Shown here: piece after piece, positions 1 through 13,014 of the stretch
Layout: each line of letters starts with the position of its first letter
Numbering within the stretch: the first letter of the stretch is position 1
Assembly (NCBI GenBank): GCA_934445035.1
Contig: CAKSDI010000002.1
Coordinates: 88,997-152,996 of the forward strand
From: an uncultured Eubacteriales bacterium
Lineage (GTDB): Bacteria > Bacillota > Clostridia > Oscillospirales > Acutalibacteraceae
Length of the DNA: 64,000 nucleotides
Reading direction: 5' to 3'
Made by a program: the position numbers and the translations under genes
Notes under the pieces: generated by a model
What the model saw: the letters and a program-made list of their open reading frames with translations, nothing else
Told to the model about the DNA's origin: nothing
Database searches by the model: none

Positions 1-591
1 CCCGTCATCTTCAAAGCCTACAATATCATAGGCAAACGGTCCTACCGAAAACTTGTTTGTATTATCCGCATTGAACACCCAAATAATGTCACGCTCAATT
101 TTATACATATCGGAAAAAGAACCATCAGCGTTGCGTTGGGCTAATTTTTCAATAGGCTTTCTGTCCGGGAAAAGATAATCTTTTGGATGCTTTTCCTTAT
201 GTAATGCGCATAGAAGCCTTGCTATATATATGTTCCTATATTTACTTTCGTCGGTTATTATCTCTGAAGCTACATAGGCAACTAACGGATTTTTGCTTGC
301 ATCCAAAATATTTGGATAACCTGCAAACTCTAACGATGATTTATCCATAGCATCTGCCATAACAAACGCCAATTTATAAAGGAAACTGCGATTCTCTTTT
401 GATTTTGCAACCGTCTGCAAATAATCAAAAAAATATTCCGTCTTTTTCAGCAGCGTGTTGGCAGCTGTGTATGCCACCCTCCCTTCACCCGACATAAACC
501 ATTGTGCGGTCTTTTGCAGACTGCTTGAATCGACTGCATCTTTATCCTTTAAGATGCGAATCAATGCCATTGGTGACTGTAAGAAACCCAT
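1..591 (-). CDS. hypothetical protein, N-terminal 197 aa; the ORF continues beyond the left window edge
   Basis: Hand translation of the minus strand. ATG at 591-589 with GAGGAG 7 nt upstream. The frame is open to position 1 (MGFLQSPMALIRILKDKDAV...). It is absent from the ORF track only because no stop lies in the window. It starts 22 nt downstream of the preceding gene, making it the last visible gene of the operon. Confidence 0.6.
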   Translation of the reverse strand, partial: MGFLQSPMALIRILKDKDAVDSSSLQKTAQWFMSGEGRVAYTAANTLLKKTEYFFDYLQTVAKSKENRSFLYKLAFVMADAMDKSSLEFAGYPNILDASKNPLVAYVASEIITDESKYRNIYIARLLCALHKEKHPKDYLFPDRKPIEKLAQRNADGSFSDMYKIERDIIWVFNADNTNKFSVGPFAYDIVGFEDDG

Positions 592-613
592 TTGTTTTCT
601 CCTCACTTTTTCT

Positions 614-1315
614 TTATTTATAAGATCCGCAGATCCTATTTCGTGAATTTAAAAGATTTACGACTTTTTCTATCTGCACAAGCATTGCCTCCGTATTTTT
701 ACCGAAAACGCTTGTTTTAAGAGCCTTTAATTCCTTTGTGATTTCTGATTCTATTTCTTTGGTTTCCTCAATAGAAACAGGATCGCTGTACTTGAACTTA
801 GTGGCGAGATTCTGCAAAGGCTCTCTTGCTTTTTCATCTTTGCAAGCATCTAAAATGTCTGAAATGTCTATCTGAAACCTTGTGACGTTTTTTGTTGCGT
901 TAACGGAGTTTACATCGATATTTTCTATAAAGTCTCTTGAATTGTCTGCCACAATAAAGCCGATGCTTGCTGCTCCGGTGTATATAAGAGATAGCAAAAG
1001 ACCTATCCAATAAGGAACATTGAAAAATGCACCGACAGCATAGAGAATAACGGTTGTTATCAGTTGAGCAGCGGTATACAGATACCCGATTCGGAAAATC
1101 GGATAACCGTAAAACTTGCTCATTAAATCCATCGGTTTGCCAAAGGCGTATAAACTAATACCCGCTCCGACAGCCAAGGAAATAATGGAAAAAGCAAACA
1201 TTATCCAAGAGCTTGCCGGTTTTGGAAACGGAATAAGCACCGTAAGGAGAATAAATAAAACGGCAACAATCCCGTAAATCGCAATGGCGGACTTTTTCGG
1301 TTTATTCATTTTCAT
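614..1315 (-). CDS. integral membrane protein (about 4 TM helices plus a helical cytoplasmic tail), function unknown
   Basis: ORF track 614..1318. I prefer the ATG at 1315 (MKMNKPKK) with AAGGAG 7 nt upstream, located inside the end of the upstream gene. Hydrophobic segments include AIAIYGIVAVLFILLTVLIPF, WIMFAFSIISLAVGAGISLYAF and YLYTAAQLITTVILYAVGAFF. Confidence 0.7.
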   Translation of the reverse strand: MKMNKPKKSAIAIYGIVAVLFILLTVLIPFPKPASSWIMFAFSIISLAVGAGISLYAFGKPMDLMSKFYGYPIFRIGYLYTAAQLITTVILYAVGAFFNVPYWIGLLLSLIYTGAASIGFIVADNSRDFIENIDVNSVNATKNVTRFQIDISDILDACKDEKAREPLQNLATKFKYSDPVSIEETKEIESEITKELKALKTSVFGKNTEAMLVQIEKVVNLLNSRNRICGSYK

Positions 1316-1317
1316 CA

Positions 1318-3213
1318 CTATTCTCCTTTCCGGTGTCCGCAGTCTGGACAGAATTTAGAAGTAATATTTGTGCGTCCGCATTCAGGGCAATTCCAGATTT
1401 CAGCTTTTTCGGGGCGTTTTGCACCGCAATCGGGACAGAAGTTGCTGCTTATTCCTTTACATCCGCAAGAACAGTCCCATTTTGAATTTTCCGCAGTTTG
1501 CGGTTTCGGAGCACCGCATTCAGGACAAAACATAGAGGTTATACAAGTTTTGCCGCAGGAACAGTTCCACGCTGTTGTTTTATTTGAGGTAGGAATGGCA
1601 TTGTCCGAAGCCTGCTTTCCCATATCGGCAGCGTTATTCATAATAGGGGACATTATATCCTTTGTCATATTTACAACGCCGCTCATCGCACCGAGTCCCA
1701 CACCAAGACCGACCATATTGCCAACGGCACCGCCAAGACCACCGGCGGCAGAACCCTCTGTGCCGGTGCCTGTTCCCGGCAAGCCGTTTTGCATGGCTTC
1801 CAATCCAATCTGACGAGAGGTTTCCTGACCGTATGTATAGCCTTTGGCACGCATTTCTTCCGCTTCTGCCATTGCCTGTGCAGAATATGCTTCGGCGGTG
1901 GATTGCCCTTTAAGTCTGGTCGCTTCGGCAGAACCCTGAGCCTCAAATTTGACCGCCTCGGAATGCGCCTGTGCGGAGATTTTGGTTGCTTCGCCTTCTC
2001 CTTGTGTGCGCAAAATTTTCCGCTGAGCCTCGGTTTGTTCCTCAACCAAGACTCTTCCTTGACGAGCTTCGGCTTCGGCTCGCAACACGCCTTCTTCTCT
2101 GGCTTTCAGCTTTCTCTCCGCTTCTTGCTTTCTCCAGCGTTCAACATCCTCGCTGTTATGGATTTTGATTGTAGTTAAATTAAAATGATTTGTCGGGATG
2201 ATCAATCCGTACTCATCAAAAACGGCGTTTAAGTCTTTGCGCAGAATATCGGAAATCAGAATTTTTTTGCTTTCAATATCTAAAACATTGATTTGATTTT
2301 CAATGATAATATTGGCTAACAGGTCCGATAAACGGCTTGTGATCACATCACGGAATTTTTCGGAAACATACGCCGCCGTATAGGACTCGCCGGCACCCAT
2401 CGGTTCGTTGTGCTCTGTTCCCGAAGATGTACCGATAATCATATAAACCAACTTGCGAACGCTCTCGTTGTCATCGATTACCTGTAAATCAACCGAACCG
2501 CTGATACCGATATTAACATAAAAATCCATTTCGGGATTTCTGAGCCGGATTTCCGGCACACCCCACTTGACATTTAATCGGTTTGTTCGAACAAAATAGA
2601 TCTTAGAATCAAATGTAAGCTCTGCGTCGGTCGGGAATTTCAAAACTTCTTCTAAAAGCGGAAGCTTTTGTGTTTCGAGAATATGTCGGCCCGGACCGAA
2701 AACATCCAATCCTTTTCCGTTTCGGAAAAACAAAGCTTTTTGTCCTTCTGACACGATAAGCTGTGAGCCGATATTGAAATTTTCTACGGGATGGCGGTAA
2801 ACGAAAATATCATTCATTCCCATATCCCATTTAATTACACCCGTTTTACCACTGCTTTTTTCCTGCGCCAACCTTGCCTGAACATCAATTACGGTTTTAC
2901 ACTGGGGACAGGTATAGGTTTTTGCGCTCTTGTCGGCAATTAATGCGACTTTACATGCGGGGCAGGTGATTTTAACTGTTTCCTTGCCGGAGTTGATTCT
3001 TGTATGACAGACCGGGCAGCTGGCAGTTGCGCTTTTACTTCTGTCATAGATAACTTTGTTTCCGCAATGGGGGCATGTGTCCTCAGCCATTCGTTCGGTG
3101 TTAACATCAACTACATAGCCGCAGGAACACTTAATTTTCTTTTTGGCAAATAAGCCTGTTCCGGCTTGTATCGGTTTTTTACACGCCGGACATTCTATTA
3201 CGAAATTAGCCAT
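1318..3213 (-). CDS. SPFH/band-7 (stomatin-prohibitin-flotillin) domain protein with multiple Zn-ribbons, YdjI/COG4260-like
   Basis: The N-terminus has about four CxxC...CxxC ribbons (CPACKK..CSCG, CPHCGN..CPVCH, CPACKV..CPQCK). The central SPFH-like region reads GVIKWDMGMNDIFVYRHP...LIVSEGQKALFFRNGK...IYFVRTN. This is followed by an Ala/Glu/Gln-rich coiled coil and a Gly-rich linker. The C-terminus carries three tandem W(N/D)C..CG..FCP(E/D)CG ribbons. I chose the start at ATG 3213 (MANFVIE, AAAGGA RBS) rather than the track start at 3297, which overlaps the upstream gene. Confidence 0.8.
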   Translation of the reverse strand: MANFVIECPACKKPIQAGTGLFAKKKIKCSCGYVVDVNTERMAEDTCPHCGNKVIYDRSKSATASCPVCHTRINSGKETVKITCPACKVALIADKSAKTYTCPQCKTVIDVQARLAQEKSSGKTGVIKWDMGMNDIFVYRHPVENFNIGSQLIVSEGQKALFFRNGKGLDVFGPGRHILETQKLPLLEEVLKFPTDAELTFDSKIYFVRTNRLNVKWGVPEIRLRNPEMDFYVNIGISGSVDLQVIDDNESVRKLVYMIIGTSSGTEHNEPMGAGESYTAAYVSEKFRDVITSRLSDLLANIIIENQINVLDIESKKILISDILRKDLNAVFDEYGLIIPTNHFNLTTIKIHNSEDVERWRKQEAERKLKAREEGVLRAEAEARQGRVLVEEQTEAQRKILRTQGEGEATKISAQAHSEAVKFEAQGSAEATRLKGQSTAEAYSAQAMAEAEEMRAKGYTYGQETSRQIGLEAMQNGLPGTGTGTEGSAAGGLGGAVGNMVGLGVGLGAMSGVVNMTKDIMSPIMNNAADMGKQASDNAIPTSNKTTAWNCSCGKTCITSMFCPECGAPKPQTAENSKWDCSCGCKGISSNFCPDCGAKRPEKAEIWNCPECGRTNITSKFCPDCGHRKGE

Positions 3214-3226
3214 AGTATCATCCTTT

Positions 3227-5350
3227 CTATCTGTAATAATCCGAGCTGGCATATGAATAACAGTCATTTGCTTTTGAGTTGCTGTCTTCATAGTCATATT
3301 TGGCTAACAGGGCAAATAAAAAATATGCTTTTTCGTACTCTGCGTTTTTTTGATAAGTACAAGCTTTATTGTACATATCTTTCAGTAATGCTTTTGATTT
3401 CAGCACATCGTCCCATATATCATCAAGCTTTGAAACTGCATTGACAATATCCGTTTCAAAAGTCGGACTGTTTACATCTACGGAGTCATAGGCTTTCATT
3501 GCTGCATCAAAGCTCTTTTGCAGCTTTTCATTCTTTTCTTTTTGTGCTTTCTTATTGCTTTCCGTGCTTGGTTTTATTGTTTTTTCTTTGCCATTACCAA
3601 AATCCTTAAATGTATAGTCAGAATAGTTAATTTGCGTGATGGCAAAGGTAATTTTCAATGATGCAAAGCTATAGTCTGACAGCTTTTGAACAGAATCGGA
3701 ATCAAGCGTTAAATCCAATTCCTGTTTTTTCCCGTGCGGAAGATTGGAAAGCTCCAACTTAGTTGCGCTGAGTTTTTTCCCGCTCTCGTCATAAAAATAC
3801 ATAACGCCTGAAAAGTAAGAAATATCAACAAAGCCTTTGTTTTTGAATTCCATTGGTATGGTTTCGCTTACCCAATTGTCGGAAAGCGTATCTTTGCTGA
3901 ATCCAACATATACATTGGTGTTATATTTCATCAAATTAAATACGAAAAATGCAAATACAACAAAAATCGCAACGACACTTAAATACGCTATAACTTTCTT
4001 GGATTTCTGTCTGGTTTTCTGCTTTTGTGTATAGCTCATTAACTCAGCGGTGCGGATTTCATCTCCGCAGGTTTGATATAACGCCAAGGCTTTTTTGAAT
4101 TCGGGACAATCAATCAGGTTTTCTTTTTTGTTTTCAATTTCGCTTTCGTTTCTTGCTTGCAACCGTACAAGACAAAGCCCCCAATATGCGTCGGCATTTT
4201 GTGCGTCAAAGGATAGAATCAATTGCAAAAAAGTCCGAGCCTGATTCCACAGGGCAGATTGTAAAAGAACACGGGAATATAAAAGAATTTGGGTTTTTAA
4301 TGCTTCCGGCGCTCCTGAATGATAGCCGATCAGCTTCCAAACAAATTGACTGATTCTGTCTGTTGTGACATTCTCGGAATTTACTGCGTTCAATACATCA
4401 ATAACTTCTTTGTCTGCATTATCTGAGTATTTAAGCAAGTTTTCAAAATCAATAATGCATTGCTGCATAGTGGCATCCGATTTTATATCGCATTTTAACA
4501 ATAACGAATGGATTCGCATATTACCCGGATCAGTAACAAGGAACTTTCTGTAATACTTTTGTGCAATTATCGGTGAACAGTTGCTGGCGAATTTTTCAAT
4601 GTATGAAAGATATGTATCTACTTCATTCGATTCCAGTGTTGTGCTTATCAAATAATCAAACGATTTTTCGTAAGATTTATTGATTGCATAGAGAATGGCA
4701 CCATTTGTAATGCTTTTGAATTTACTGTTTGAATAAACAGCTTCATTTTTTGCATAGGGCAAAATGGCTTTTAAGGCTGTGAACAAAGCACTGTCGGATT
4801 GATAATCATTTGAAAAAATCAATTCTATAATATGCCGTGCAAATTCAGGTGTAGCATTTGAAAGAATGACATCGATTATTTTCCCATCAGCTACGGTAAA
4901 CGCCGATAATGCCCTTAATAGTTCTCCCTCATTAGAAAGGTGGCGGCTGCACATAATTGCAAACCACCGCACCTGCGCATTGTTATGATCAGATAATAAA
5001 ACCTGATTGATTTGGGCTTGTGCTGTTTCCCATTCCTTAACACCTAAAAAGCGAGAAATCAGTTGGAGATTCTGTTCAGTATCAATATTGGAACTTTCAC
5101 GGTGAATGTCTGAGTCAATATTATCCGAAAGCTTAATTTCTTTAACGGTAATTGTATCCGTTTTAATAGTCGCCGCCTTTGCTGCCATTTGTCCGCTTTG
5201 AATTTCCTTCTTTTCAATGGGGCAATAAGTAAACGGATTTCCGGCATCATCTCGACCGAGCATATATTTTGTGCCGCAGTTTTCACATATGTAAAACTTG
5301 CCATCTTCACGCAGTGTTCCGCCGCAACCAGAACATTCAAGTTTTTTCAC
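3227..5350 (-). CDS. Zn-ribbon / helical-repeat (TPR-like) single-pass membrane protein, function unknown
   Basis: GTG start at 5350 with GAGGAGG 7 nt upstream. N-terminal ribbon CSGCGG-x15-CENCG. About 400 aa of helical repeat follows (e.g. AYWGLCLVRLQARNESEI), then one TM helix (VIAYLSVVAIFVVFAFFVFNLM), then a beta-rich region and a helical C-terminal domain. Confidence 0.7.
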   Translation of the reverse strand: MKKLECSGCGGTLREDGKFYICENCGTKYMLGRDDAGNPFTYCPIEKKEIQSGQMAAKAATIKTDTITVKEIKLSDNIDSDIHRESSNIDTEQNLQLISRFLGVKEWETAQAQINQVLLSDHNNAQVRWFAIMCSRHLSNEGELLRALSAFTVADGKIIDVILSNATPEFARHIIELIFSNDYQSDSALFTALKAILPYAKNEAVYSNSKFKSITNGAILYAINKSYEKSFDYLISTTLESNEVDTYLSYIEKFASNCSPIIAQKYYRKFLVTDPGNMRIHSLLLKCDIKSDATMQQCIIDFENLLKYSDNADKEVIDVLNAVNSENVTTDRISQFVWKLIGYHSGAPEALKTQILLYSRVLLQSALWNQARTFLQLILSFDAQNADAYWGLCLVRLQARNESEIENKKENLIDCPEFKKALALYQTCGDEIRTAELMSYTQKQKTRQKSKKVIAYLSVVAIFVVFAFFVFNLMKYNTNVYVGFSKDTLSDNWVSETIPMEFKNKGFVDISYFSGVMYFYDESGKKLSATKLELSNLPHGKKQELDLTLDSDSVQKLSDYSFASLKITFAITQINYSDYTFKDFGNGKEKTIKPSTESNKKAQKEKNEKLQKSFDAAMKAYDSVDVNSPTFETDIVNAVSKLDDIWDDVLKSKALLKDMYNKACTYQKNAEYEKAYFLFALLAKYDYEDSNSKANDCYSYASSDYYR

Positions 5351-6000
5351 AACTTTACCTCCTCGGTCGTGATAGGACCGTTTTTAATAACATAAGGCAC
5401 TTTGTTATTACGTATTTCTTCGACGGTTAACGAATGATGCCGAACTAAATCACATTCTTTACACGAAAAAGAAAACCAATCATATGCAAACCCCGGCATA
5501 TGAAGTAAAACATCTTTGAATTTTTCATTATCTATGTATGTGTTCTTGATGCTCTTAAGCAACTCTGAAAAATTAGTTGGTGGCAACAAATCGGGAATAT
5601 TTGAATAATAACGTATACACCAAACAAATACAGGTATCGTCAAGAGAACACTAATAGTGTTATTTACAGTGGAGTAATTTTTATTTGATTTCTTTTTGCA
5701 CGCATGATTTATACACTGGATAGAAAGTTCTTCAATATTATTTGTTTTAAGCTTATGATCTTTAATGTCTTTGATATATGTGGTAGTTTCTTTTTCGGTG
5801 GATGCTAAGGTTAATTCAAAAGGCATATTGTCTATTATCAAATCAGGTTCTTTTTGGTTGGCGTTTCCCCATATTATTTTTTTCTCACAAAAAAGGTCAA
5901 AACAATTTTTAAGAAGATACAATTGAAATCTCTCATTTATTTCTTTTTTGAAGAAATCTTTTGGAAAGAAATAATCAAAACTAACTTTATTCATTTTCAT
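5347..6000 (-). CDS. hypothetical protein (217 aa), first gene of the operon
   Basis: ORF track 5347..6177. I prefer the ATG at 6000 (MKMNKVSFDYFF) with GGAG upstream. The longer form has no RBS and would run through the inverted repeat at 6044-6064. Its stop overlaps the GTG start of the next gene (GTGA). Confidence 0.6.
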   Translation of the reverse strand: MKMNKVSFDYFFPKDFFKKEINERFQLYLLKNCFDLFCEKKIIWGNANQKEPDLIIDNMPFELTLASTEKETTTYIKDIKDHKLKTNNIEELSIQCINHACKKKSNKNYSTVNNTISVLLTIPVFVWCIRYYSNIPDLLPPTNFSELLKSIKNTYIDNEKFKDVLLHMPGFAYDWFSFSCKECDLVRHHSLTVEEIRNNKVPYVIKNGPITTEEVKL

Positions 6001-6043
6001 AATAATGCTCCATAGATTTGTTTGAATAGACAACTGATTAAAC

Positions 6044-6064
6044 AACATAATCCATATTATGTTG
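6044..6064. repeat. left inverted repeat (IRL) of the candidate invertible segment
   Basis: AACATAATCCATATTATGTTG. The exact reverse complement occurs at 6305-6325. The site is internally lox/dif-like: arms AACATAAT/ATTATGTT flank an asymmetric CCAT core. Confidence 0.85.
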
Positions 6065-6074
6065 TATTTAGAGC

Positions 6075-6104
6075 AATAAAAAATCTGCCGCAAACAGGGC
6101 AGAT
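6075..6104 (-). terminator. intrinsic terminator (minus strand) inside the invertible segment
   Basis: Stem ATCTGCC(6083-6089)/GGCAGAT(6098-6104) with an 8-nt loop. On the minus strand it is followed by TTTTTTATT. It lies between the recombinase gene and the operon. Confidence 0.65.
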
Positions 6105-6228
6105 CAAAAAAGAGTATAGCAAAGCAAGCCTTCTCAGAATTGTCGAAAAAGATAAGGAGAAAAGGCTTTATTGTCATGTTCGGTTTTCGACAATTTTGAG
6201 TTTTCTGTACTTTCCTTGGTTAAAGTGC

Positions 6229-6257
6229 TTTACAAACCATCCGTATTATGATATAAT
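6229..6257 (+). promoter_or_regulatory. sigma-A-type promoter with extended -10, inside the invertible segment
   Basis: TTTACA (6229-6234), a 17-nt spacer ending in TGa, then TATAAT (6252-6257). It currently points toward IRR and the 3' end of the recombinase gene, away from the operon. Confidence 0.65.
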
Positions 6258-6304
6258 ACGATATGTAAAATTGCGTTTGCTATATCCAAAAGCGAAATTT
6301 AATG

Positions 6305-6325
6305 CAACATAATATGGATTATGTT
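6305..6325. repeat. right inverted repeat (IRR) of the candidate invertible segment
   Basis: CAACATAATATGGATTATGTT is a 21/21 reverse complement of 6044-6064. The core is ATGG here versus CCAT in IRL, so the two sites are in inverted orientation. Confidence 0.85.
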
Positions 6326-6329
6326 TCTG

Positions 6330-6351
6330 CCGCCGATTTCGGTGGTTTTTT
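6330..6351 (+). terminator. plus-strand hairpin plus T-run immediately outside IRR
   Basis: CCGCCG(6330-6335)/CGGTGG(6340-6345), 6 bp including one G-U pair, with a 4-nt loop and TTTTTT (6346-6351). It would stop OFF-orientation promoter transcripts before they run antisense into the recombinase gene. Confidence 0.45.
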
Positions 6352-7192
6352 ATATTATAAGCCGCATATTTTCCATACGCTGACGATGTTCCATGCCGGT
6401 GGAGATGATATAAATTCTTGTGGTGTTTATACTTGAATGACCGAGAATATCCGCAAGTTTTGCAATATCCTTTTCAATTCCGTAAAACACCCTTGCGAAC
6501 AGGTGGCGCAGGTTATGCGGAAACACCTTTTGTGGGTTTACATTTGCTTCTTCACACAAGGCTTTCATTTCCCGCCAGATGTTGGTTCGGCTTATCGGCT
6601 TGCCCGTCCTTGTTACAAAAATCATACCGCTTTTAATATTTTGCTCTGCTGCATAGCGGAGCAATTTTTGTTTTAATTCCTTTACGATAAATACCGACCG
6701 CGTTTTCGCCTTGCAGTTCACCACCGCCTCGCCCTGTTTTACCGCCTCAACCGTTATATATTGCAACTCGCTGACGCGGATTCCCGTTCCGCATATAGTC
6801 TGCAAAATAAGATTAAGCCGCTCGTTGTGCTTGCGCTCCGCCGTTCGACAAAGCCGTGTGTATTCCGCTTTTGTCAGTTCTTTTTCTTCGGGGCAGAATA
6901 CCTGCTGCTGCAATTTCAGCGATTTCACCTTTAAATCGTGCCAGCCTAAAAAAGCAAATAGATTGTTGATACTTGCAAGCATTGAATTAACGCTTCGCAC
7001 AGCGTAAGCTTCTTGCAAATGCTTCTTATATGCAATTACGTTTTCTTTTGTAACAGCATTGTTTTGCGTATACGCTGAAAATGCCTTTACATCACGGCTA
7101 TACTTTTCAACTGTTGCCGCACTCCTTTCCTCTAAGATTAGGTGTTCCTTAAATTCGGCAATTACTTTTGCCGTAATAAATCGTCCTTTCAT
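6350..7192 (-). CDS. site-specific tyrosine recombinase (XerC/D-like size, no arm-binding domain); candidate invertase for the adjacent switch
   Basis: SAM-like N-terminal domain (AATVEKYSRDVKAF). Catalytic motifs are GTGIRVSEL (Arg), HNLRHLFA (H-x-x-R-H) and HSSINTTRIYI (His...Tyr). Start taken at ATG 7192 (MKGRFITAK) with a GGAGG RBS. Confidence 0.9.
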   Translation of the reverse strand: MKGRFITAKVIAEFKEHLILEERSAATVEKYSRDVKAFSAYTQNNAVTKENVIAYKKHLQEAYAVRSVNSMLASINNLFAFLGWHDLKVKSLKLQQQVFCPEEKELTKAEYTRLCRTAERKHNERLNLILQTICGTGIRVSELQYITVEAVKQGEAVVNCKAKTRSVFIVKELKQKLLRYAAEQNIKSGMIFVTRTGKPISRTNIWREMKALCEEANVNPQKVFPHNLRHLFARVFYGIEKDIAKLADILGHSSINTTRIYIISTGMEHRQRMENMRLII

Positions 7193-7319
7193 TTTGGTTT
7201 GCCTCCGAGTATTTTTTACTATTTTACCCGAAAAGTATGAAAACAAAAATTGTCGTCCCAAAAGGGTTGTGGTATGTTACCTTGGAAAGAACGATTTTGC
7301 AAGTTATTTTTTATTTTAG

Positions 7320-7348
7320 TTGAAAACAATTTGCCACATTGATATAAT
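7320..7348 (+). promoter_or_regulatory. consensus-like sigma-A promoter upstream of the element's regulatory genes
   Basis: TTGAAA (7320-7325), 17 nt, TATAAT (7343-7348). A structured leader of about 200 nt follows. Confidence 0.6.
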
Positions 7349-7550
7349 TAAAATATTCTTTCCGATCACAACGGCAGCAGCCGTGTGATAAATAAAATTT
7401 ATGTGCCGATGAGGTCACAACTGTGTGACCTCAGATTTCACCGAAGCTCCTAAGGCAATCAGCTGTAGATAGGATAAGCCTTGAAGTCAACAGTTTAATG
7501 GTGCTGTTTCGGCAGCCCTGTGACCTTTCCCACGGCGGAAAGGAATTCAT

Positions 7551-7946
7551 TTGGGGAATACCATTGTTAAGTACGGCGAAGGTACGGTTTCAGTTTCAAA
7601 AGAGGTTGCGGATTTTTTAGAGGCCGACAGAAAAAGGCAGGCGGCTGAAGGTCGGAGCGACCGCCGGCACACGAGTAAGAGTGATTCCGAAACAGTGCTG
7701 CAAACTGCTCAAATTACGGCTGTCAGCGATCCTACCTTTGAAACGGCTTTTAAAAACCTTTGTTTTGAAAAACTGCAAAAAATCATTGCCAACCTTGAGT
7801 TTGAAGATTTCTTTTTGATTCGGTGCTACTTTTTTGAGGAATGCACTATGCAGCAAATTGCAGACAAACTCGGAGTGAGTAAAATGGCAATATCGAAACA
7901 ACTGAAAAAACTCCTGAGCCGGATACGGGAACTTATGGAAACATAG
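7551..7946 (+). CDS. sigma-70 region-4-like helix-turn-helix protein (mobile-element regulator)
   Basis: TTG start with a GGAAAGGA RBS 6 nt upstream. C-terminal HTH reads ECTMQQIADKLGVSKMAISKQLKKLLSRIRELM. Confidence 0.7.
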   Translation: MGNTIVKYGEGTVSVSKEVADFLEADRKRQAAEGRSDRRHTSKSDSETVLQTAQITAVSDPTFETAFKNLCFEKLQKIIANLEFEDFFLIRCYFFEECTMQQIADKLGVSKMAISKQLKKLLSRIRELMET

Positions 7947-8113
7947 GTTTCCGTATTTTTTTGCAATTTTTTAAAATTTTGGTTTACAAACTGCTTTTAA
8001 CTGTCCTAATAAGTAGAGGGATAAATTTCGGAGCATAGATGGCACCTGTATATTTTGTCTGATGCCGTCCGTAATTTATCTCTCAATATTTTATATAAAG
8101 GAGCTGATGCCGA

Positions 8114-8410
8114 ATGATTGTGCCGCAAAATAAAAACGGCAATTTTTTTATGCTGTCAAACAGTATATTTAAGCAAGGTCTTAAACCGAGGGAATTTATT
8201 GTCTACTGCTGCCTTGTAAAACACAGCGATAAAAACGGTGTCTGCTTTCCGTCACGGCGGCTGATTGCCAAGGAGTGCTGTATTGATAAAAAGACGTTGG
8301 ACTCAGCAATCCAAAGTCTTGAAAAAACGGGACTTGTAAAAAAGAAAAAACGCCGCAGACAGGACGGTTCGAACACAAGCAATGCTTACACGGTCAAGCT
8401 GTTTCGGTAG
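8114..8410 (+). CDS. winged helix-turn-helix DNA-binding protein (mobile-element associated)
   Basis: AAAGGAG RBS. FPSRRLIAKECCIDKKTLDSAIQSLEKTGLV is wHTH-like. The tail is basic (KKKKRRRQ). Confidence 0.65.
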   Translation: MIVPQNKNGNFFMLSNSIFKQGLKPREFIVYCCLVKHSDKNGVCFPSRRLIAKECCIDKKTLDSAIQSLEKTGLVKKKKRRRQDGSNTSNAYTVKLFR

Positions 8411-8698
8411 TGTAATTTTTTCGTACAGGGTGGTGTAAGAAACGGTATCGCAGAACTATACCCATAGAACTAAACCCACTGAGTATATATTACAGCAGAA
8501 TAAAGAAATAAGACGGCAAACTTTTCCTCTGCCGAAACAGCCGCAGAAAACGCCCTGTTCGCCGAGCAAGCGAAAAACCGAGTAAACACCCAACCGAGCC
8601 TCACAAAGGCGAAATACGGCGCTGTAAACGGCGTGTACGCCCCTTTTTTCTTTTCTGCTGTGGTAACAGACAGAATACCGCAGGGTGACGCCTTTGTA

Positions 8699-8821
8699 CT
8701 CTCCCTTTGGGGAGAGTGCGAGCATCGCAGACGGCTGGTCGCCGGCAAAGCCGCCCCCTGCCGCTGCTGCTCGGCGGGCAGAAGCCCTGCACCCACTTAC
8801 TTTCTTTGAAAAGAAAGTAAG
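8699..8821 (+). promoter_or_regulatory. candidate oriT region (two hairpins upstream of mobC)
   Basis: Hairpin CTCTCCC(8699-8705)/GGGAGAG(8710-8716) is followed by TGCGAGCAT, so AGTGCG resembles MOBQ-type nic-proximal sequence. A second hairpin CTTACTTTCT(8796-8805)/AGAAAGTAAG(8812-8821) lies 35 nt before the mobC ATG. Confidence 0.4.
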
Positions 8822-8855
8822 CAAAGAAACTTTAATCTTCAATGAAAGGAATTTT

Positions 8856-9167
8856 ATGAAGGATAAGAAACTAAGCATCCGCATCAGCGAACAAGACCTC
8901 GCTGCCATACACCGAAAAGCGAACACGGCAAAGCTTTCCATTACGGACTATATTACACGCTCCTGCCTCAACAAACAAATCATTGTGGTGGACGGGCTTG
9001 AAAATATTATCCGAGAGCAAAAAGCGATCGGTAAAAACCTAAACCGACTCACACTGCTTTGCAATATGGGCAGAGTATCGGTTGCCGATCTGTCTGAAGT
9101 AAAGAATGAGTATGCAAGGCTGAACGAACTTCTTTGTTCTCTGCTTGACAGAAAGCGGTGGCAGTAA
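8856..9167 (+). CDS. mobC: MobC-family relaxosome accessory protein (ribbon-helix-helix)
   Basis: MKDKKLSIRISEQDLAAIHRKANTAKLSITDYITRSCL...IGKNLNRLTLLCN. Internal ATG at 8856 with a GAAAGGA RBS. The stop overlaps the relaxase ATG (TAATG). Confidence 0.8.
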   Translation: MKDKKLSIRISEQDLAAIHRKANTAKLSITDYITRSCLNKQIIVVDGLENIIREQKAIGKNLNRLTLLCNMGRVSVADLSEVKNEYARLNELLCSLLDRKRWQ

Positions 9168-10528
9168 TGGCAACGGTAAATTTAATACAGAGCAAGCGTT
9201 CACAATCGAAAGTCGGACTTAAATTTATTCTTTCCTACTGTAAGCGTGACAGCAAAACCGTGTGTGGAAATAAAAAACTGATCGGCGGTGTGAACTGCGT
9301 TGCCGAAAGCGCATACCACGAAATGCTGTCTACGAAAATGCGGTACGGAAAAACAGACGGCAGAATGTTTTATCATCTGGTGCAGTCCTTCTCGCCGGAG
9401 GAAAACATTACTCCCGAAACCGCATACGAAATTGCTTTGAAATTTGCGGAACGGGAATTTTCCGAATATGAAGTTTTGGTGGCTACCCATACCGACAGGG
9501 CGCATATCCATTCGCATTTTGTTATCAACAGCGTAAGCTGTGAGAACGGATACAAGCTCCGTCTGCCTAAGGATTTTATAGAGCAGCTGCGAAACGCATC
9601 GGACAGGCTTTGTATGGAATACGGTCTGTCGGTTATCCCTACACAACAGAAAAAGAAAATCGTGCGGCAGATGTCCTCAAAGGAATACCGTTCGGCAGTG
9701 CGGGGCGAGAGTTATAAAATGCAGCTTGCGGCAGTCATAGATGACGCAATGGCACGGGCAAAAACAAAAGAAGATTTTATTCGGTCGATGGAAGCCGAGG
9801 GCTACGGTGTGGTATGGACGGACGAGAGAAAATATATCACCTATATCACGCAGGACGGAAAGCGGTGCCGCGACCGCAGCCTGCACGAAGAAAAATATCT
9901 TAAGGAGAATATGGAATATGAATTCGGAATACGGAAGATTATCCTCGGAGGAACTGAAAACGAGAGCGCGGCAGAGTATGCAGAGAGCTGCCGAAGCGAA
10001 GCCCTGCGTAACGGTGACCGAGCCGAACTGGAAAGGAATGCTCGATACGCAGAAAGCGCAGATAGAACTGCTCTCACGGCTGATGAGCGCAACCGAAACG
10101 CTGACAACCAAAGAGGAACTGACGGAGTATATGAACGAGCAGCTGAATATTCTGACCGAGAACAACGCACAGTGCCAAGCGGCGGTGACGGAATTTCAGA
10201 ACAGAATGAGGAAATCGGCAACGGAATTTACCGACTCGATGAAAACGGCGGTGTCGGATACCGAGAAACGGGTTGGGAGGATCAGCGATTATTATTCGAA
10301 CAATCTCTCAATGCTGACGGATACGGCGGAGAAGTATTTGAGCCAGATATTTTGGATTACGGTTATTCCCTCAGCGATAACGGCACTGTATTATCTGACG
10401 CTGCTTATCTTGCGGCTGATATAACAGTCATCATTGACGATGACGCTCCTGTTGAGGATTGCACCACAAGGCACTTCCCCTCAGAGCATAAAAAGAAATA
10501 TTCCGGTCCTGTTATGGGCGGAATGTAA
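9167..10528 (+). CDS. MobA/VirD2-family relaxase (mobilization nuclease)
   Basis: Histidine triad HTDRAHIHSHFVINSV and N-terminal YCKRDSK..GGVNC. A long acidic/Gly-rich C-terminal tail follows. ATG 9167 is translationally coupled to mobC. Confidence 0.85.
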   Translation: MATVNLIQSKRSQSKVGLKFILSYCKRDSKTVCGNKKLIGGVNCVAESAYHEMLSTKMRYGKTDGRMFYHLVQSFSPEENITPETAYEIALKFAEREFSEYEVLVATHTDRAHIHSHFVINSVSCENGYKLRLPKDFIEQLRNASDRLCMEYGLSVIPTQQKKKIVRQMSSKEYRSAVRGESYKMQLAAVIDDAMARAKTKEDFIRSMEAEGYGVVWTDERKYITYITQDGKRCRDRSLHEEKYLKENMEYEFGIRKIILGGTENESAAEYAESCRSEALRNGDRAELERNARYAESADRTALTADERNRNADNQRGTDGVYERAAEYSDREQRTVPSGGDGISEQNEEIGNGIYRLDENGGVGYRETGWEDQRLLFEQSLNADGYGGEVFEPDILDYGYSLSDNGTVLSDAAYLAADITVIIDDDAPVEDCTTRHFPSEHKKKYSGPVMGGM

Positions 10529-10562
10529 AAATACCGAACAGCCTTACGGCGGAAAGGAATCT

Positions 10563-10712
10563 ATGGAGAAAAACGATTACAACATTGAACGGGTTGAGTT
10601 TTACTATAACGGCGACGATGAAAAGTTTGACCGCTTTTTAAGCTCGGCGATAAAAGAATATATCAGTACGGATAAAACGGCGGCCGATTGCGAAAACAGT
10701 AAATCGGCGTAA
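10563..10712 (+). CDS. small hypothetical protein (49 aa)
   Basis: ATG 10563 with a GGAAAGGAA RBS (MEKNDYNIERVEFYYNGDDEKF...). It lies between the relaxase and recombinase genes. Confidence 0.45.
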   Translation: MEKNDYNIERVEFYYNGDDEKFDRFLSSAIKEYISTDKTAADCENSKSA

Positions 10713-10800
10713 TTTATCTGGACTTACGGCAGGTGTTGTGGTATGTTGTTGCGTGGACAGGATATCACGCGCCTGCCGAGAAAAAAGAAAGGTGATTGCT

Positions 10801-12447
10801 ATGAGAGTATGGCTGTATTCAAGGCTTTCCCGTGATGAGGACAGCGAGTTAAATTCACTTACCAATCAGCAAAACATATTGCGGGAATATGCGGCAAACA
10901 ATAACTGCGCCGTTATCGGTGAGTCAGCCGATGACAACATCAGCGGAATGCATTTTAACCGTGAGGGGATAAATAAAATATACGCCGCCGTTGAGGATAA
11001 AAGCATTGACGCGGTAATCGTTAAAGACCTGTCCCGACTCGGACGGCACAGAACGCAGACCGCAATGTTTATAGACTATCTTCGTGAAAATGATGTGCGT
11101 GTGCTTTCGGTAACCGAAAACATAGACACAAGCAACGAGGACGATGATCTGATGGTTGGCTTTAAAGGAATATTCAACGATATGTACGCCAGAGATATAT
11201 CCAAGAAAATCCGTGCGGGATATAAGCAAAAACAAAAAAGCGGTATCGTGATGATACCGCCGCTTGGATACTTCAAGGATAAAAACACGGGCAAGGTTAC
11301 GGTTGTTGAGGAACACGCCGAAATAGTCCGTAAGATATTCAATCTGTATGTATCGGGATACGGGCTTAAAGCTATATCTAAAATTTTGAATGAGGAAGGT
11401 ATTAAATCGCCGGGATATTATCAGAAAAAACTGTTAGGTAAAAATCTCGGATATAATAAACCGGAAATTGCTCACAGATTTTTATGGGAAAATACAGGCG
11501 TAAAAAGAATATTGCAGAATGAGTTTTATATCGGGAATCTTATCTGCCACAAGTCCTATACAAGTAAAATAAATCATATAAGAAAGGAACTGCCGCCCGA
11601 AGAGCATTTCAAACATGAAAACGCCGTGCCTGCAATCATACCGAAAGAGATATGGGAGCAGGCACAGTTTTTACTTGAGCAAAAGCCGAAAAGAAATGTA
11701 AGGGCTTCAAGCGGAAATACACATCACCGATACACGGGGCTTATAAAATGCGGCGATTGCGGTTCATCATTCAGTTGTAAAACAAGATATTGGCGTAATA
11801 ATCCGCCGAGAATGGAATATGTTTGCAACGGCTACCACCGTTACGGAAAGGAAAATTGTTCGCCGCATAAGATTGGTGAGGAAGTTCTTGACAGGCTGAT
11901 ACTTAAAGAGCTTGAGGAGCTTAAAATAATGGCCCATGAAAACTTTAAAAGGGTTGACAAAGAACTGAAAAAGTGGCTTGCTGACCGACCGTCCGCCGAA
12001 AAACAGATAACAGCGCTTAAGAATAAGCTCGCGCAGCGGAAAAACGACCAACAGCAAATACTGCTTGAAAGAATACGGGACAGAGAACACGCCGAAGTAT
12101 ATACCCAAATGCTTGTTTCCTGCGAAACGGATATTAAAACAATCGAAAGCAGAATTCGGGAAATGAAGGATATTGAAACTACCGTAAAGGAACGCAAAAA
12201 GCAAATGAATAAAAGCGTAGAACTGCTTGATGGTATTATAGCCGACGGTGCGATAAACGATACGCATCTCAGGATGTTGGTGGATGAGATCGTTATATAC
12301 GAAAAAAACGGAAAGCTTGATATTCAAATAACGCTTAACGGAGAATTCCGCACGCATATCGACTACTACGATGAAAGCGGAGATATAACCGACAGGCACG
12401 CCGAAATATGGTATTTCCCGAATTGGGAAAGTATGGCGGAGGGTTAA
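10801..12447 (+). CDS. large serine recombinase (resolvase/invertase N-terminal domain, recombinase domain, Zn-ribbon, coiled coil)
   Basis: MRVWLYSRLSRDED contains the catalytic Ser motif; VKDLSRLGRH is also present. The Zn-ribbon reads CGDCGSSFSC...CNGYHRYGKENCSPH. ATG 10801 has an AAAGGTGA RBS. Confidence 0.9.
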   Translation: MRVWLYSRLSRDEDSELNSLTNQQNILREYAANNNCAVIGESADDNISGMHFNREGINKIYAAVEDKSIDAVIVKDLSRLGRHRTQTAMFIDYLRENDVRVLSVTENIDTSNEDDDLMVGFKGIFNDMYARDISKKIRAGYKQKQKSGIVMIPPLGYFKDKNTGKVTVVEEHAEIVRKIFNLYVSGYGLKAISKILNEEGIKSPGYYQKKLLGKNLGYNKPEIAHRFLWENTGVKRILQNEFYIGNLICHKSYTSKINHIRKELPPEEHFKHENAVPAIIPKEIWEQAQFLLEQKPKRNVRASSGNTHHRYTGLIKCGDCGSSFSCKTRYWRNNPPRMEYVCNGYHRYGKENCSPHKIGEEVLDRLILKELEELKIMAHENFKRVDKELKKWLADRPSAEKQITALKNKLAQRKNDQQQILLERIRDREHAEVYTQMLVSCETDIKTIESRIREMKDIETTVKERKKQMNKSVELLDGIIADGAINDTHLRMLVDEIVIYEKNGKLDIQITLNGEFRTHIDYYDESGDITDRHAEIWYFPNWESMAEG

Positions 12448-12459
12448 CCCTCCGCCATA
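12432..12459. repeat. 28-bp perfect palindrome spanning the serine recombinase stop codon
   Basis: TATGGCGGAGGGTT|AACCCTCCGCCATA. No T-run follows it. Confidence 0.9.
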
Positions 12460-12576
12460 TCATATATCAATATTCTTCTGTGCTGTAAATATAACAGACT
12501 CGGCAGGCGTGCAGCTCTATGTTATGCGCCAGTTTTTTGCTTGTGACAAGTAATTTCAGTTAAAATTTTAGGCAAA

Positions 12577-12615
12577 GAAAAACGCTCAAAGCCGCATAAA
12601 CAAAGGCTTTGAGCG
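12577..12615 (-). terminator. intrinsic terminator of tRNA-Leu
   Basis: Stem CGCTCAAAGCC(12583-12593)/GGCTTTGAGCG(12605-12615). On the minus strand it is followed by a T-run (plus-strand A-run 12577-12582). It lies directly 3' of the tRNA. Confidence 0.7.
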
Positions 12616-12616
12616 G

Positions 12617-12703
12617 TGGTGCGGGTAAGAGGACTTGAACCTCCACGACCTTGCGATCATTAGAACCTGAATCTAACGCGTCTGCCTATTCCGCCATACC
12701 CGC
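12617..12703 (-). tRNA. tRNA-Leu (anticodon CAG), CCA encoded
   Basis: The minus strand reads GCGGGTATGGCGGAATAGGCAGACGCGTTAGATTCAGGTTCTAATGATCGCAAGGTCGTGGAGGTTCAAGTCCTCTTACCCGCACCA. Acceptor stem GCGGGTA/TACCCGC, anticodon loop TTCAGGT, a long variable arm and T-loop GGTTCAAGTCC. Confidence 0.9.
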
Positions 12704-12975
12704 ATATTAAGTTTTTATCCTCTGATTTTTACACGGCGAGGATATCCGAGGCGGAGCATTTCGCTTAATCCGCAATATATACAAACAGCAATTAAGCTGT
12801 GTGTAAGCTCAAATTAAAAAGAAAGTAAGAACGAAAAAATTTCAAAAATTGAAAAGTTGAGAAGTGCGATATCGTAGAAGTTGACTTTGTCAACTTTTCG
12901 ATTTCGTCGCACTGCATTGTGCGATGAAATCGCGCCGAAAATTTCAGTTTTTAATACTTACACCAAGGTGGCGTT

Positions 12976-13014
12976 ACCTGAATCTAGCGCGTCTGCCTAT
13001 TCCGCCATATCCGC
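12976..13014 (-). pseudogene. truncated duplicate of the tRNA-Leu 5' half (acceptor 5' strand through the anticodon loop)
   Basis: 37/39 identity to 12665-12703, at an offset of 311 bp. Homology breaks in the anticodon loop, and no 3' half follows. Confidence 0.85.

Follow-up and report, generated by a model that had tools for sequence, protein, structure and literature searches.

Operon Organization

The left edge of the window (the whole analyzed stretch of 64,000 nucleotides (nt) from contig CAKSDI010000002.1 of an uncultured Eubacteriales bacterium) carries an operon encoding an SPFH-domain protein, two membrane proteins adjacent to it and several further products, all behind a short promoter-bearing segment flanked by inverted repeats (IRs). 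Coordinates given without a locus label refer to the window, while L-numbers (L001, L084, etc.) designate the related loci or contigs used for comparison. Genes A–E are tightly packed on the minus strand within positions 1–6000: gene A (5347–6000; 217 amino acids (aa), ATG start preceded by GGAG), gene B (3227–5350; 707 aa, GTG start), gene C (1318–3213; 631 aa), gene D (614–1315; 233 aa) and gene E (1–591; 197 of its 210 codons inside the window). The GTG of B and the TGA stop codon of A overlap as GTGA, a 13-nt gap follows the TAG of B, 2 nt separate the TAG of C from the ATG of D, and a 22-nt gap follows the TAA of D; a Shine-Dalgarno-like purine run precedes every start codon. An earlier note on this DNA had described the same five-gene order, overlap and gaps, which are reproduced here.

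Downstream extension of the locus was read from identical contigs of Hadza gut metagenomes, including L001. They give gene E its full length of 210 aa, followed by gene F (346 aa; a coiled coil, a hairpin of two transmembrane (TM) helices and another coiled coil), the start of which abuts the stop codon of E, and by gene G (136 aa). Because a terminator-like hairpin follows G and the next gene, H, has a strong promoter-like site of its own, the operon is a seven-gene unit, A–G, of about 7.5 kb, ending about 1.2 kb past the window edge. No pspA-like gene follows this end, and the absence of a visible PspA pointed out in the earlier note holds for the whole unit, as Pfam searches returned no PspA match in A–E or, at E ≤ 1, in the products of genes E–I. 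GC content is 30% in A, 37% in B, 46% in C, 38% in D, 39% in E and 41% in F.

A longer, 276-aa form of protein A was considered and rejected, since the corresponding upstream ATG falls inside the invertible segment described below. The 217-aa form was retained because homologs and gene calls start at its ATG, which has the GGAG ribosome-binding site.

Invertible Promoter Segment

Upstream of gene A, two 25-nt inverted-repeat arms (operon-proximal, 6044–6068; recombinase-proximal, 6301–6325), 96% complementary to each other, enclose a segment of 232 bp (6069–6300). Each contains the palindromic core ACATAAT-N4-ATTATGT, present in exactly two copies in 64 kb against 0.01 expected. Only 25 bp separate the nearer arm from a minus-strand gene (6350–7192) encoding a 280-aa tyrosine recombinase, the presumed invertase, which matches Pfam Phage_integrase (1.8e-25) and has a SAM-like N-terminal domain. 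The segment holds a plus-strand promoter-like sequence TTTACA-17-TATAAT with a TG extension (6229–6257; 11/12 consensus matches) which, as assembled, points away from the operon, an orientation we call OFF. In silico inversion turns this promoter towards gene A, with a leader of about 100 nt to its start codon, and the inverted orientation has the sequence signature GAATAGACAACTGATTAAAC-IR-AAATTTCGCTTTTGGATATA. A terminator-like hairpin on the minus strand (6082–6105) lies just upstream of A in the OFF state, where it probably blocks read-through onto the operon. The Rfam scan of positions 1–13000 returned a tRNA-Leu alone, and the leader therefore contains no riboswitch. A further 17-nt inverted repeat (6133–6149 and 6184–6200; 94% complementary, 34-nt loop) occupies the middle of the segment and is also present in L001.

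An equivalent cassette occurs in four other loci (L084, L091, L037 and L054), comprising a recombinase of 54–85% identity, inverted repeats with the palindromic core and a segment of 206–278 bp; in L054 a perfect TTGACA-17-TATAAT promoter is found in the equivalent OFF arrangement. The promoter is clearly OFF in the window, L001, L002, L084 and L054. The orientation is also OFF in L003 and L093, and L037 is ambiguous, its best promoter-like site (10/12) facing the SPFH gene and another facing away. The L003 and L093 contigs, from independent metagenomes, begin (position 1) at points corresponding to window positions ~6085 and ~6116, within the invertible segment. Assemblers faced with mixed orientations would be expected to leave contig ends of this kind; both fragments here are OFF. 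Scans of Joint Genome Institute (JGI) metagenomes gave 0 matches for the ON junction and 0 for an orientation-agnostic query; this collection contains no copy of the locus, so its null result is silent on inversion.

Inverted repeats, a promoter-bearing segment between them and an adjacent site-specific recombinase are the anatomical components of an inverton, and all of them are found here. The ON/OFF switch proposed in the earlier note is thus well supported by its anatomy, by the neighboring tyrosine recombinase and by its recurrence in four loci, whereas inversion itself was not observed and is only presumed to take place. Capsule promoters of Bacteroides and RecV-controlled switches of C. 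difficile are established examples of phase variation by promoter inversion. The locus resembles them in having inverted repeats around a short promoter segment beside a recombinase gene, and differs from them in the palindromic core of each arm, in the travel of the cassette on mobilizable elements and in its cargo, which is an SPFH scaffold operon with an E–F module in place of capsule, flagella or fimbriae (see also PMC11602134). Our literature search found no paper linking invertons to SPFH genes.

SPFH Protein C and Membrane Protein D

Gene C encodes a protein matching Pfam Band_7_1 (PF13421) at residues 138–342 with 91.7 bits, against a gathering cut-off of 24 (E = 6.6e-26). The protein consists, in order, of three zinc ribbons, the SPFH domain, an Ala/Glu-rich coiled coil, an invariant KGYTY motif, a Gly-rich hydrophobic patch and three further ribbons of the WxCxCG...FCPxCG type. 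The N-terminal ribbons are formed by Cys 8/11/29/31, 47/50/66/69 and 84/87/102/105, and all twelve cysteines are invariant in 11 homologs. The SPFH assignment and the three C-terminal ribbons proposed earlier are correct, but the N-terminal ribbons number three and not about four. The most hydrophobic window, in the Gly-rich patch, scores 1.54 and stays below the TM threshold; C accordingly has no TM helix.

Homologs of C form more than 120 full-length clusters among the matches listed, from gut and rumen metagenomes. The sole matches to solved structures are weak ones to flotillin-1/2 and erlin-2 (E ~1e-3). Like the flotillin, HflK/C, stomatin and erlin scaffolds, C has an SPFH domain followed by an Ala/Glu-rich coiled-coil region; unlike them, it lacks a membrane anchor of its own, belongs to Band_7_1 and not to Band_7, and has no NfeD or FtsH-type client nearby.

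The product of gene D has four TM helices, in agreement with the earlier reading; the fourth continues into a cytoplasmic helical bundle in the AlphaFold2 (AF2) model (predicted local distance difference test (pLDDT) score 85.8). Its conserved motifs are SKFYGYP, KYSDPVS and RNRIC. D matches no Pfam or NCBIfam family, PADLOC yields only a 14-bit match to the TM region, and Foldseek finds no match with E < 0.01 in PDB. We presume that D serves as the membrane anchor for C. A D-like protein of Thomasclavelia cocleata (L064, 11310–11984) shows a likeness to the N-terminal membrane region of polyprenyl glycosylphosphotransferases (TIGR03025; E = 1.9e-5, 24 bits), which is far below threshold and may be compositional.

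Conservation of the C–D Pair

A genome scan with C returned 80 loci, at which the operon proteins were compared by tblastn and D additionally by a hidden Markov model (HMM); co-occurrence was counted over 81 loci, 33 close and 48 distant. By tblastn, D alone travels with C, directly downstream of it. The D HMM places it immediately downstream of C homologs at 28/33 close and 25/48 distant loci, 53/81 in total, and these pairs span C identities from 23% to 97%. The distant pairs include those of cultured Paenibacillus, Gorillibacterium, Anaerocolumna, Thomasclavelia cocleata and Lachnoclostridium.

Ribbon-bearing proteins of the CxxCG[GAS]...C[ED][YF]CG type accompany the pair. They account for 44 of the 295 same-strand open reading frames (ORFs) located ≤5 kb from C–D vs. 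4 of the 414 located farther away, and are present at 35 of the 53 C–D loci. At one locus (L033, 3922–5430) a 502-aa fusion joins a D-like 4-TM domain (residues 5–226) to TPR and DUF6273, providing a Rosetta-stone link between the D anchor and the variable partner family.

The earlier note had proposed gene-neighborhood statistics for the five-gene set and named a lack of co-occurrence in other genomes as a result that would count against its reading. This result was obtained for the full set, which is absent elsewhere, but not for the core: C–D is widespread and B–C–D is found in close relatives.

Six loci from cultured Firmicutes (L042, L044, L045, L047, L052 and L064, at ~10000–12800 in each; Gorillibacterium, Paenibacillus, Anaerocolumna, Lachnoclostridium and Thomasclavelia) carry a three-gene module encoding an SPFH protein (~430 aa, five ribbons at its C-terminus), a 4-TM protein resembling D and a membrane protein ending in CxxCG...CEYCG. 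No pspA gene adjoins the module at any of the six, and its D-like and ribbon-bearing proteins fall in no Pfam family. The product of the third gene of the distant C–D modules ('fam2') ends in the CxxCG[GAS]...C[ED][YF]CG ribbon; it was considered as a homolog of F, E or B, and comparison revealed nothing beyond the common ribbon type.

Comparison with the PspA–YdjGHI System

The earlier note interpreted the operon as an expanded module of the ydjGHI type. In B. subtilis, YdjI (SamI) is a soluble SPFH protein with a C-terminal low-complexity region and a zinc ribbon (PMC8581546), recruited to the membrane by YdjG/H (SamG/H) (PMC8581546; bioRxiv 10.64898/2026.02.06.704340). YdjG and YdjH were compared with the operon products through their published architectures: YdjH has a TPM-phosphatase domain, and YdjG has two zinc ribbons, a YpeB/NTF2-like domain and a TM helix (PMC11237479). 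Like YdjI, C is a soluble Band-7/SPFH protein that has a low-complexity stretch and zinc-ribbon sequence at its C-terminus; it too is encoded together with a zinc-ribbon membrane protein (B) and a second membrane protein (D). It differs in having three extra N-terminal ribbons and three C-terminal ones. D combines four TM helices with a helical bundle, and no match to the TPM domain was found in it or in any other operon product. B has one ribbon, one TM helix, TPR-like repeats in the stretch between the two and a variable ectodomain, in contrast to the two ribbons and NTF2-like domain of YdjG; no NTF2-like domain was detected in it. The operon has no pspA, is borne by a mobile element and is phase-variable in design, whereas ydjGHI is controlled by sigma-W.

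The comparison thus upholds a YdjI-like C with ribbon-bearing membrane partners, but not the wider homology. D is not a homolog of YdjH, nor, judged by its architecture, is B likely to be one of YdjG, and the resemblance is therefore one of functional analogy only; with PspA and the TPM-domain partner absent, the operon is not a member of the pspA–ydjGHI family.

Functional analogy nevertheless leaves room for an envelope-stress or membrane-homeostasis module like YdjGHI/SamGHI that has no role in conflict, its PspA being encoded elsewhere or unneeded. Membrane proteins would then recruit the SPFH protein to stabilize damaged membrane or to signal stress. The assignment of C to Band_7_1, its C-terminal ribbons and its lack of a TM helix, all as in YdjI (PMC8581546, PMC11237479), agree with such a role, as do the ribbon-bearing and second membrane partners, the wide occurrence of C–D at ordinary chromosomal sites, around which defense genes are not in evident excess, and the finding that some SamGHI phenotypes are independent of PspA (bioRxiv 10.64898/2026.02.06.704340). 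PspA is missing, however, both from the operon and from the neighborhoods of the relatives inspected; the TPM domain of YdjH is missing from D, and no counterpart of the NTF2-like module of YdjG was detected in B (PMC11237479). Mobility, an ON/OFF switch, variable ectodomains and the tandem TIR paralogs described in the next section would be unusual for a housekeeping stress system. We consider this explanation unlikely, though a serious competitor; if it were correct, the locus would still add a different set of partners to the YdjI/SamI paradigm.

Protein B and TIR-Bearing Partners in Related Loci

Gene B encodes a single-pass, receptor-like protein with a cytoplasmic CxxCGG...CExCG ribbon (Cys6/9/22/25), TPR-like matches below threshold, a single TM helix (453–471) and a 236-aa ectodomain after it. 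The architecture of zinc ribbon, repeats, one TM helix and outer domain outlined in the earlier note is therefore borne out, with the TPR matches remaining sub-threshold. Orthologs of B with 31–60% identity occupy the same position in L084–L087, the loci with C at 54–83% identity. The cytoplasmic part of B (1–470) is kept in them, and the ectodomain is replaced by LRR_5 in L087. In L084, the closest relative with different cargo, where C is 83% identical, B is split into ORFs of 436 and 265 aa (7878–9985) and D is split as well (11899–12607); the splits could reflect frameshifts, gene decay or errors of assembly.

In most close loci the C–D pair is flanked by proteins of 570–1900 aa beginning MAIFKCKMCGGDLEV...ECEYCGTKQTVP, with a Pfam order of N-terminal ribbon, TPR, TIR_2, more TPR and a variable C-terminus. 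The B slot holds one to four such tandem ribbon-TPR-TIR paralogs in 22/33 close loci, and TIR is found in 2/48 distant ones; examples of tandem arrays are L013 3771–15323, L039 7512–20759, L020 4213–7134 and L016 3011–8737. The TIR_2 matches (E from 1e-9 to 5e-12) lie above the gathering score, and a search of the TIR segment against PDB sequences returned no match at E ≤ 0.01. The TIR consensus AVWVKNEWSRFL retains the W..E motif, whose Glu we take to be the catalytic residue of TIR NADases. RCC1 repeats, Flg_new, LRR_5, DUF6273 or multi-TM segments make up the variable C-termini. In about half of the TIR proteins a TM helix around residues 550–640 precedes the variable domain; the rest are soluble. 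The TM-bearing ones would thus have a cytoplasmic TIR domain and an extracellular repeat domain, a predicted topology similar to that of Toll-like receptors (TLRs). These TIR partners are new and were not foreseen by the earlier note.

B itself, like the other window proteins, has no TIR domain in family-model scans. Its residues 1–35 match the ribbon HMM of the ribbon-TPR-TIR family, and its membrane-proximal TPR module (residues 352–449) matches the post-TIR module of that family (hmmsearch, 37 bits; hhalign, probability 95%, E = 3.7e-8). On these profile matches B can be assigned to a putative ribbon-TPR-(TIR) partner family of SPFH–D loci, a family defined here.

A gene of an Erysipelotrichaceae locus (L037, 12079–12867) encodes a 262-aa protein with a weak DUF2971 match between a D-like gene and a ribbon-TPR-TIR gene; the recombinase-plus-inverton cassette of L037 lies upstream of this D-like/TIR operon.

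The TIR proteins of the relatives recall Thoeris-type defense systems, in which several TIR sensor paralogs accompany one effector, in that tandem TIR paralogs stand beside one conserved gene pair and in their weak, sub-threshold similarity to the ThsB, ThcB4 and retron-TIR models. Unlike in Thoeris, there is no ThsA-like SIR2, Macro or SLOG effector, and the TIR proteins are large ribbon-TPR-TIR-TPR polypeptides, some with a TM helix and an ectodomain; the window operon lacks a TIR domain altogether, and no PADLOC model scores above noise. Our literature searches turned up neither a paper that connects SPFH with TIR nor one that names the D family.

The variable ectodomains raise the question of whether the operon is a phase-variable surface-display or adhesion module, in which B-type surface proteins would be placed by the SPFH–D scaffold and the switch would vary antigenicity or adhesion in the gut. 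The 236 residues of B following its single TM helix, the LRR_5, Flg_new or RCC1 domains located after the TM helix in orthologs and relatives, neighboring genes for LRR_5, Cu_amine_oxidN1 and PG_binding_1 proteins, and the frequent control of surface structures by gut invertons (PMC11892184) are all consistent with display. Yet a TM helix is missing from about half of the TIR-family partners, so that their RCC1 or DUF6273 domains are cytosolic, and the conserved parts (ribbons, TPR, TIR and SPFH) are all cytoplasmic. No sortase signal or signal peptide was noticed on reading the sequences, which was not a formal test. Surface display appears improbable to us.

Genes A, E, F and G

Protein A belongs to a small family of 36 representative clusters only, among 1.84 billion proteins, sharing the motif EPD...ExT...K..K.Y with invariant D53, E62, K104, K107 and Y109. 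Its predicted structure is that of an alpha/beta protein (AF2 pLDDT 86, predicted template-modelling score (pTM) 0.85). The motif hints at a restriction-endonuclease-like, PD-(D/E)xK-like fold, and this possible nuclease assignment stays a motif-based guess because Foldseek gave no match with E < 0.01 in PDB and BFVD, returning only weak CdiA-CT nuclease-like hints. PDB sequence searches with A and E were without match. A is restricted to the window's own lineage and is absent from the closest relative, L084; the contigs carrying its homologs are too short for their gene contexts to be informative.

Of the E–F(–G) products, E is soluble, F is a coiled-coil protein with two TM helices and G is small. 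E represents a family that comprises 43 clusters and lacks any Pfam domain, and G has no family match in Pfam, PADLOC, PHROGs or NCBIfam. E–F–G stand beside the core only in L084. E–F is found without any SPFH gene at L091 7334–10852 and L090 9001–10694. At L091 the pair comes immediately after a recombinase of 85% identity and a perfect 23-nt inverted repeat, on a relaxase/NikA element where ApeA and a gene of the Schlafen/AlbA_2 type are its neighbors; at L090 it is near WYL, AAA and Tpt1 genes. E–F may therefore represent a separate candidate conflict module.

Since E–F stands alone elsewhere, A is an orphan and only the core is conserved, the operon is a composite of three separable modules, B–C–D, E–F(–G) and A, behind one invertible promoter. 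An extreme form of this view would be that unrelated genes were stacked by successive insertions in a cargo slot and share nothing but regulation. The independent E–F, the orphan A with its deviant GC content and the varying cargo behind equivalent recombinase-and-repeat cassettes speak in its favor. Against it, translational coupling is tight through all junctions, and C–D and B–C–D adjacency is kept across deep divergence, from which it follows that the core is a real unit. Mere stacking is accordingly the least probable of the explanations considered here, and we regard it as very unlikely.

A Putative Membrane Sensing or Conflict Platform

Membrane scaffolds of the SPFH type are universal; they oligomerize, and their clients in bacteria are mostly unknown. 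TIR domains are at the enzymatic heart of innate immunity in organisms ranging from bacteria to animals. In kind the locus is familiar, with an SPFH scaffold and its membrane partners, here placed under an invertible promoter; the unexpected lead comes from the TIR partners of its relatives, and its function can only be inferred. The reading we favor, tentatively and at somewhat less than an even chance, is that of a phase-variable, mobile-element-borne membrane sensing or conflict platform. Soluble C would oligomerize as other SPFH proteins do, D would tether it to the membrane, and B and other ribbon-TPR partners would dock on the C–D platform, forming a physical C–D–B complex. Such a platform could cluster sensor or effector proteins upon envelope events, e.g., phage attack or another conflict. 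We suggest clustering because the B slot of relatives holds ribbon-TPR-TIR paralogs with a conserved Glu and variable C-terminal domains. The TIR-less version in the window may produce its output via membrane remodeling or through the co-transcribed modules, and the recombinase beside the 232-bp invertible promoter would switch the whole operon ON and OFF. Sensing or conflict is preferred here over pure housekeeping on account of the diversifying tandem TIR partners of relatives, the receptor-like topology of some of them, and the mobility and ON/OFF control of the window's version.

Several observations weigh against this platform. B in the window has no TIR domain, so the conflict role is drawn from relatives. 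No operon protein has a meaningful PADLOC or PHROGs match, and an NCBIfam scan of all operon products was equally blank. The 126 ORFs around close relatives are mostly housekeeping genes, with generic kinase/helicase-like PADLOC matches only, and no evident excess of defense genes surrounds the related loci, as counted without a background control. In cultured Paenibacillus, Gorillibacterium, Anaerocolumna and Thomasclavelia, C–D and a third, ribbon-bearing membrane protein are found in ordinary chromosomal contexts, which fits a housekeeping envelope role. The switch is subject to doubts of its own: OFF is the sole orientation seen among assemblies with a readable promoter, and a promoter-like sequence TTGACC-16-AATAAT (10/12 matches) inside gene A, running from 5900 to 5873 on the minus strand, could express B–G regardless of the state of the segment.

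The earlier note had named phage exclusion as one suitable function, and defense-island enrichment and HMM or structure searches as checks. The searches assigned no product to a known defense system and placed C in Band_7_1; enrichment was negative for the 126 neighboring ORFs, counted without a background control, and phage exclusion gains nothing from the blank PADLOC result for the operon or from its surroundings, staying conjectural.

A more specific proposal can be formulated, which we rate as clearly less likely than the platform in general. B–C–D would be a TIR-less member of an undescribed class of membrane signaling or immune platforms of gut and rumen Clostridia. In this class a YdjI-like SPFH scaffold and a 4-TM anchor would organize arrays of ribbon-TPR-TIR receptors, clustering by SPFH would trigger TIR activity, and some of the receptors would be Toll-like, with extracellular LRR, RCC1 or Flg_new, one TM helix and an intracellular TIR domain. 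Stacked in the window with the independent E–F–G module and the possibly nuclease-like gene A behind a single invertible promoter on a mobilizable element, the platform would be part of a phase-variable, horizontally mobile conflict cassette.

The conserved, unnamed partnership of a Band_7_1 SPFH protein, a 4-TM anchor and a ribbon partner offers a concrete set of candidate clients for a bacterial SPFH scaffold, and its relatives place such scaffolds beside TIR domains, some of them receptor-like in topology. The recombinase-plus-inverton 'cargo slot' on mobilizable elements of gut Clostridia puts differing modules under ON/OFF control and, with one such slot adjoining ApeA, may be a useful place to seek costly accessory or defense functions.

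Mobile-Element Context and Flanking Genes

On the far side of the tyrosine recombinase from the operon lie mobilization genes, followed by a tRNA-Leu. The plus-strand backbone of a mobilizable element (7551–12447) encodes Sigma70_r4-like, HTH_36, NikA-like, relaxase and large serine recombinase proteins, as identified by Pfam matches on L001, and the tRNA-Leu(CAG) gene (12617–12703, minus strand) was detected by both ARAGORN and Rfam. Relaxase and NikA genes also flank the relatives L084, L085 and L091. Operon A–G is cargo on this mobilizable element, and the mobile-element and tRNA neighborhood mentioned in the earlier note is thereby identified.

The large serine recombinase gene (from 10738) ends ~170 bp from tRNA-Leu(CAG), with htpG beyond it, and this side is likely the integration end of the element. 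Past the left edge of the window (L001, 15295–17346) lie two low-GC genes, H (204 aa) and I (334 aa), each with its own promoter and terminator. Protein I combines Zn_Ribbon_1, a TM helix and an outer domain, and matches PHROG families without assigned function (best 6.5e-25).

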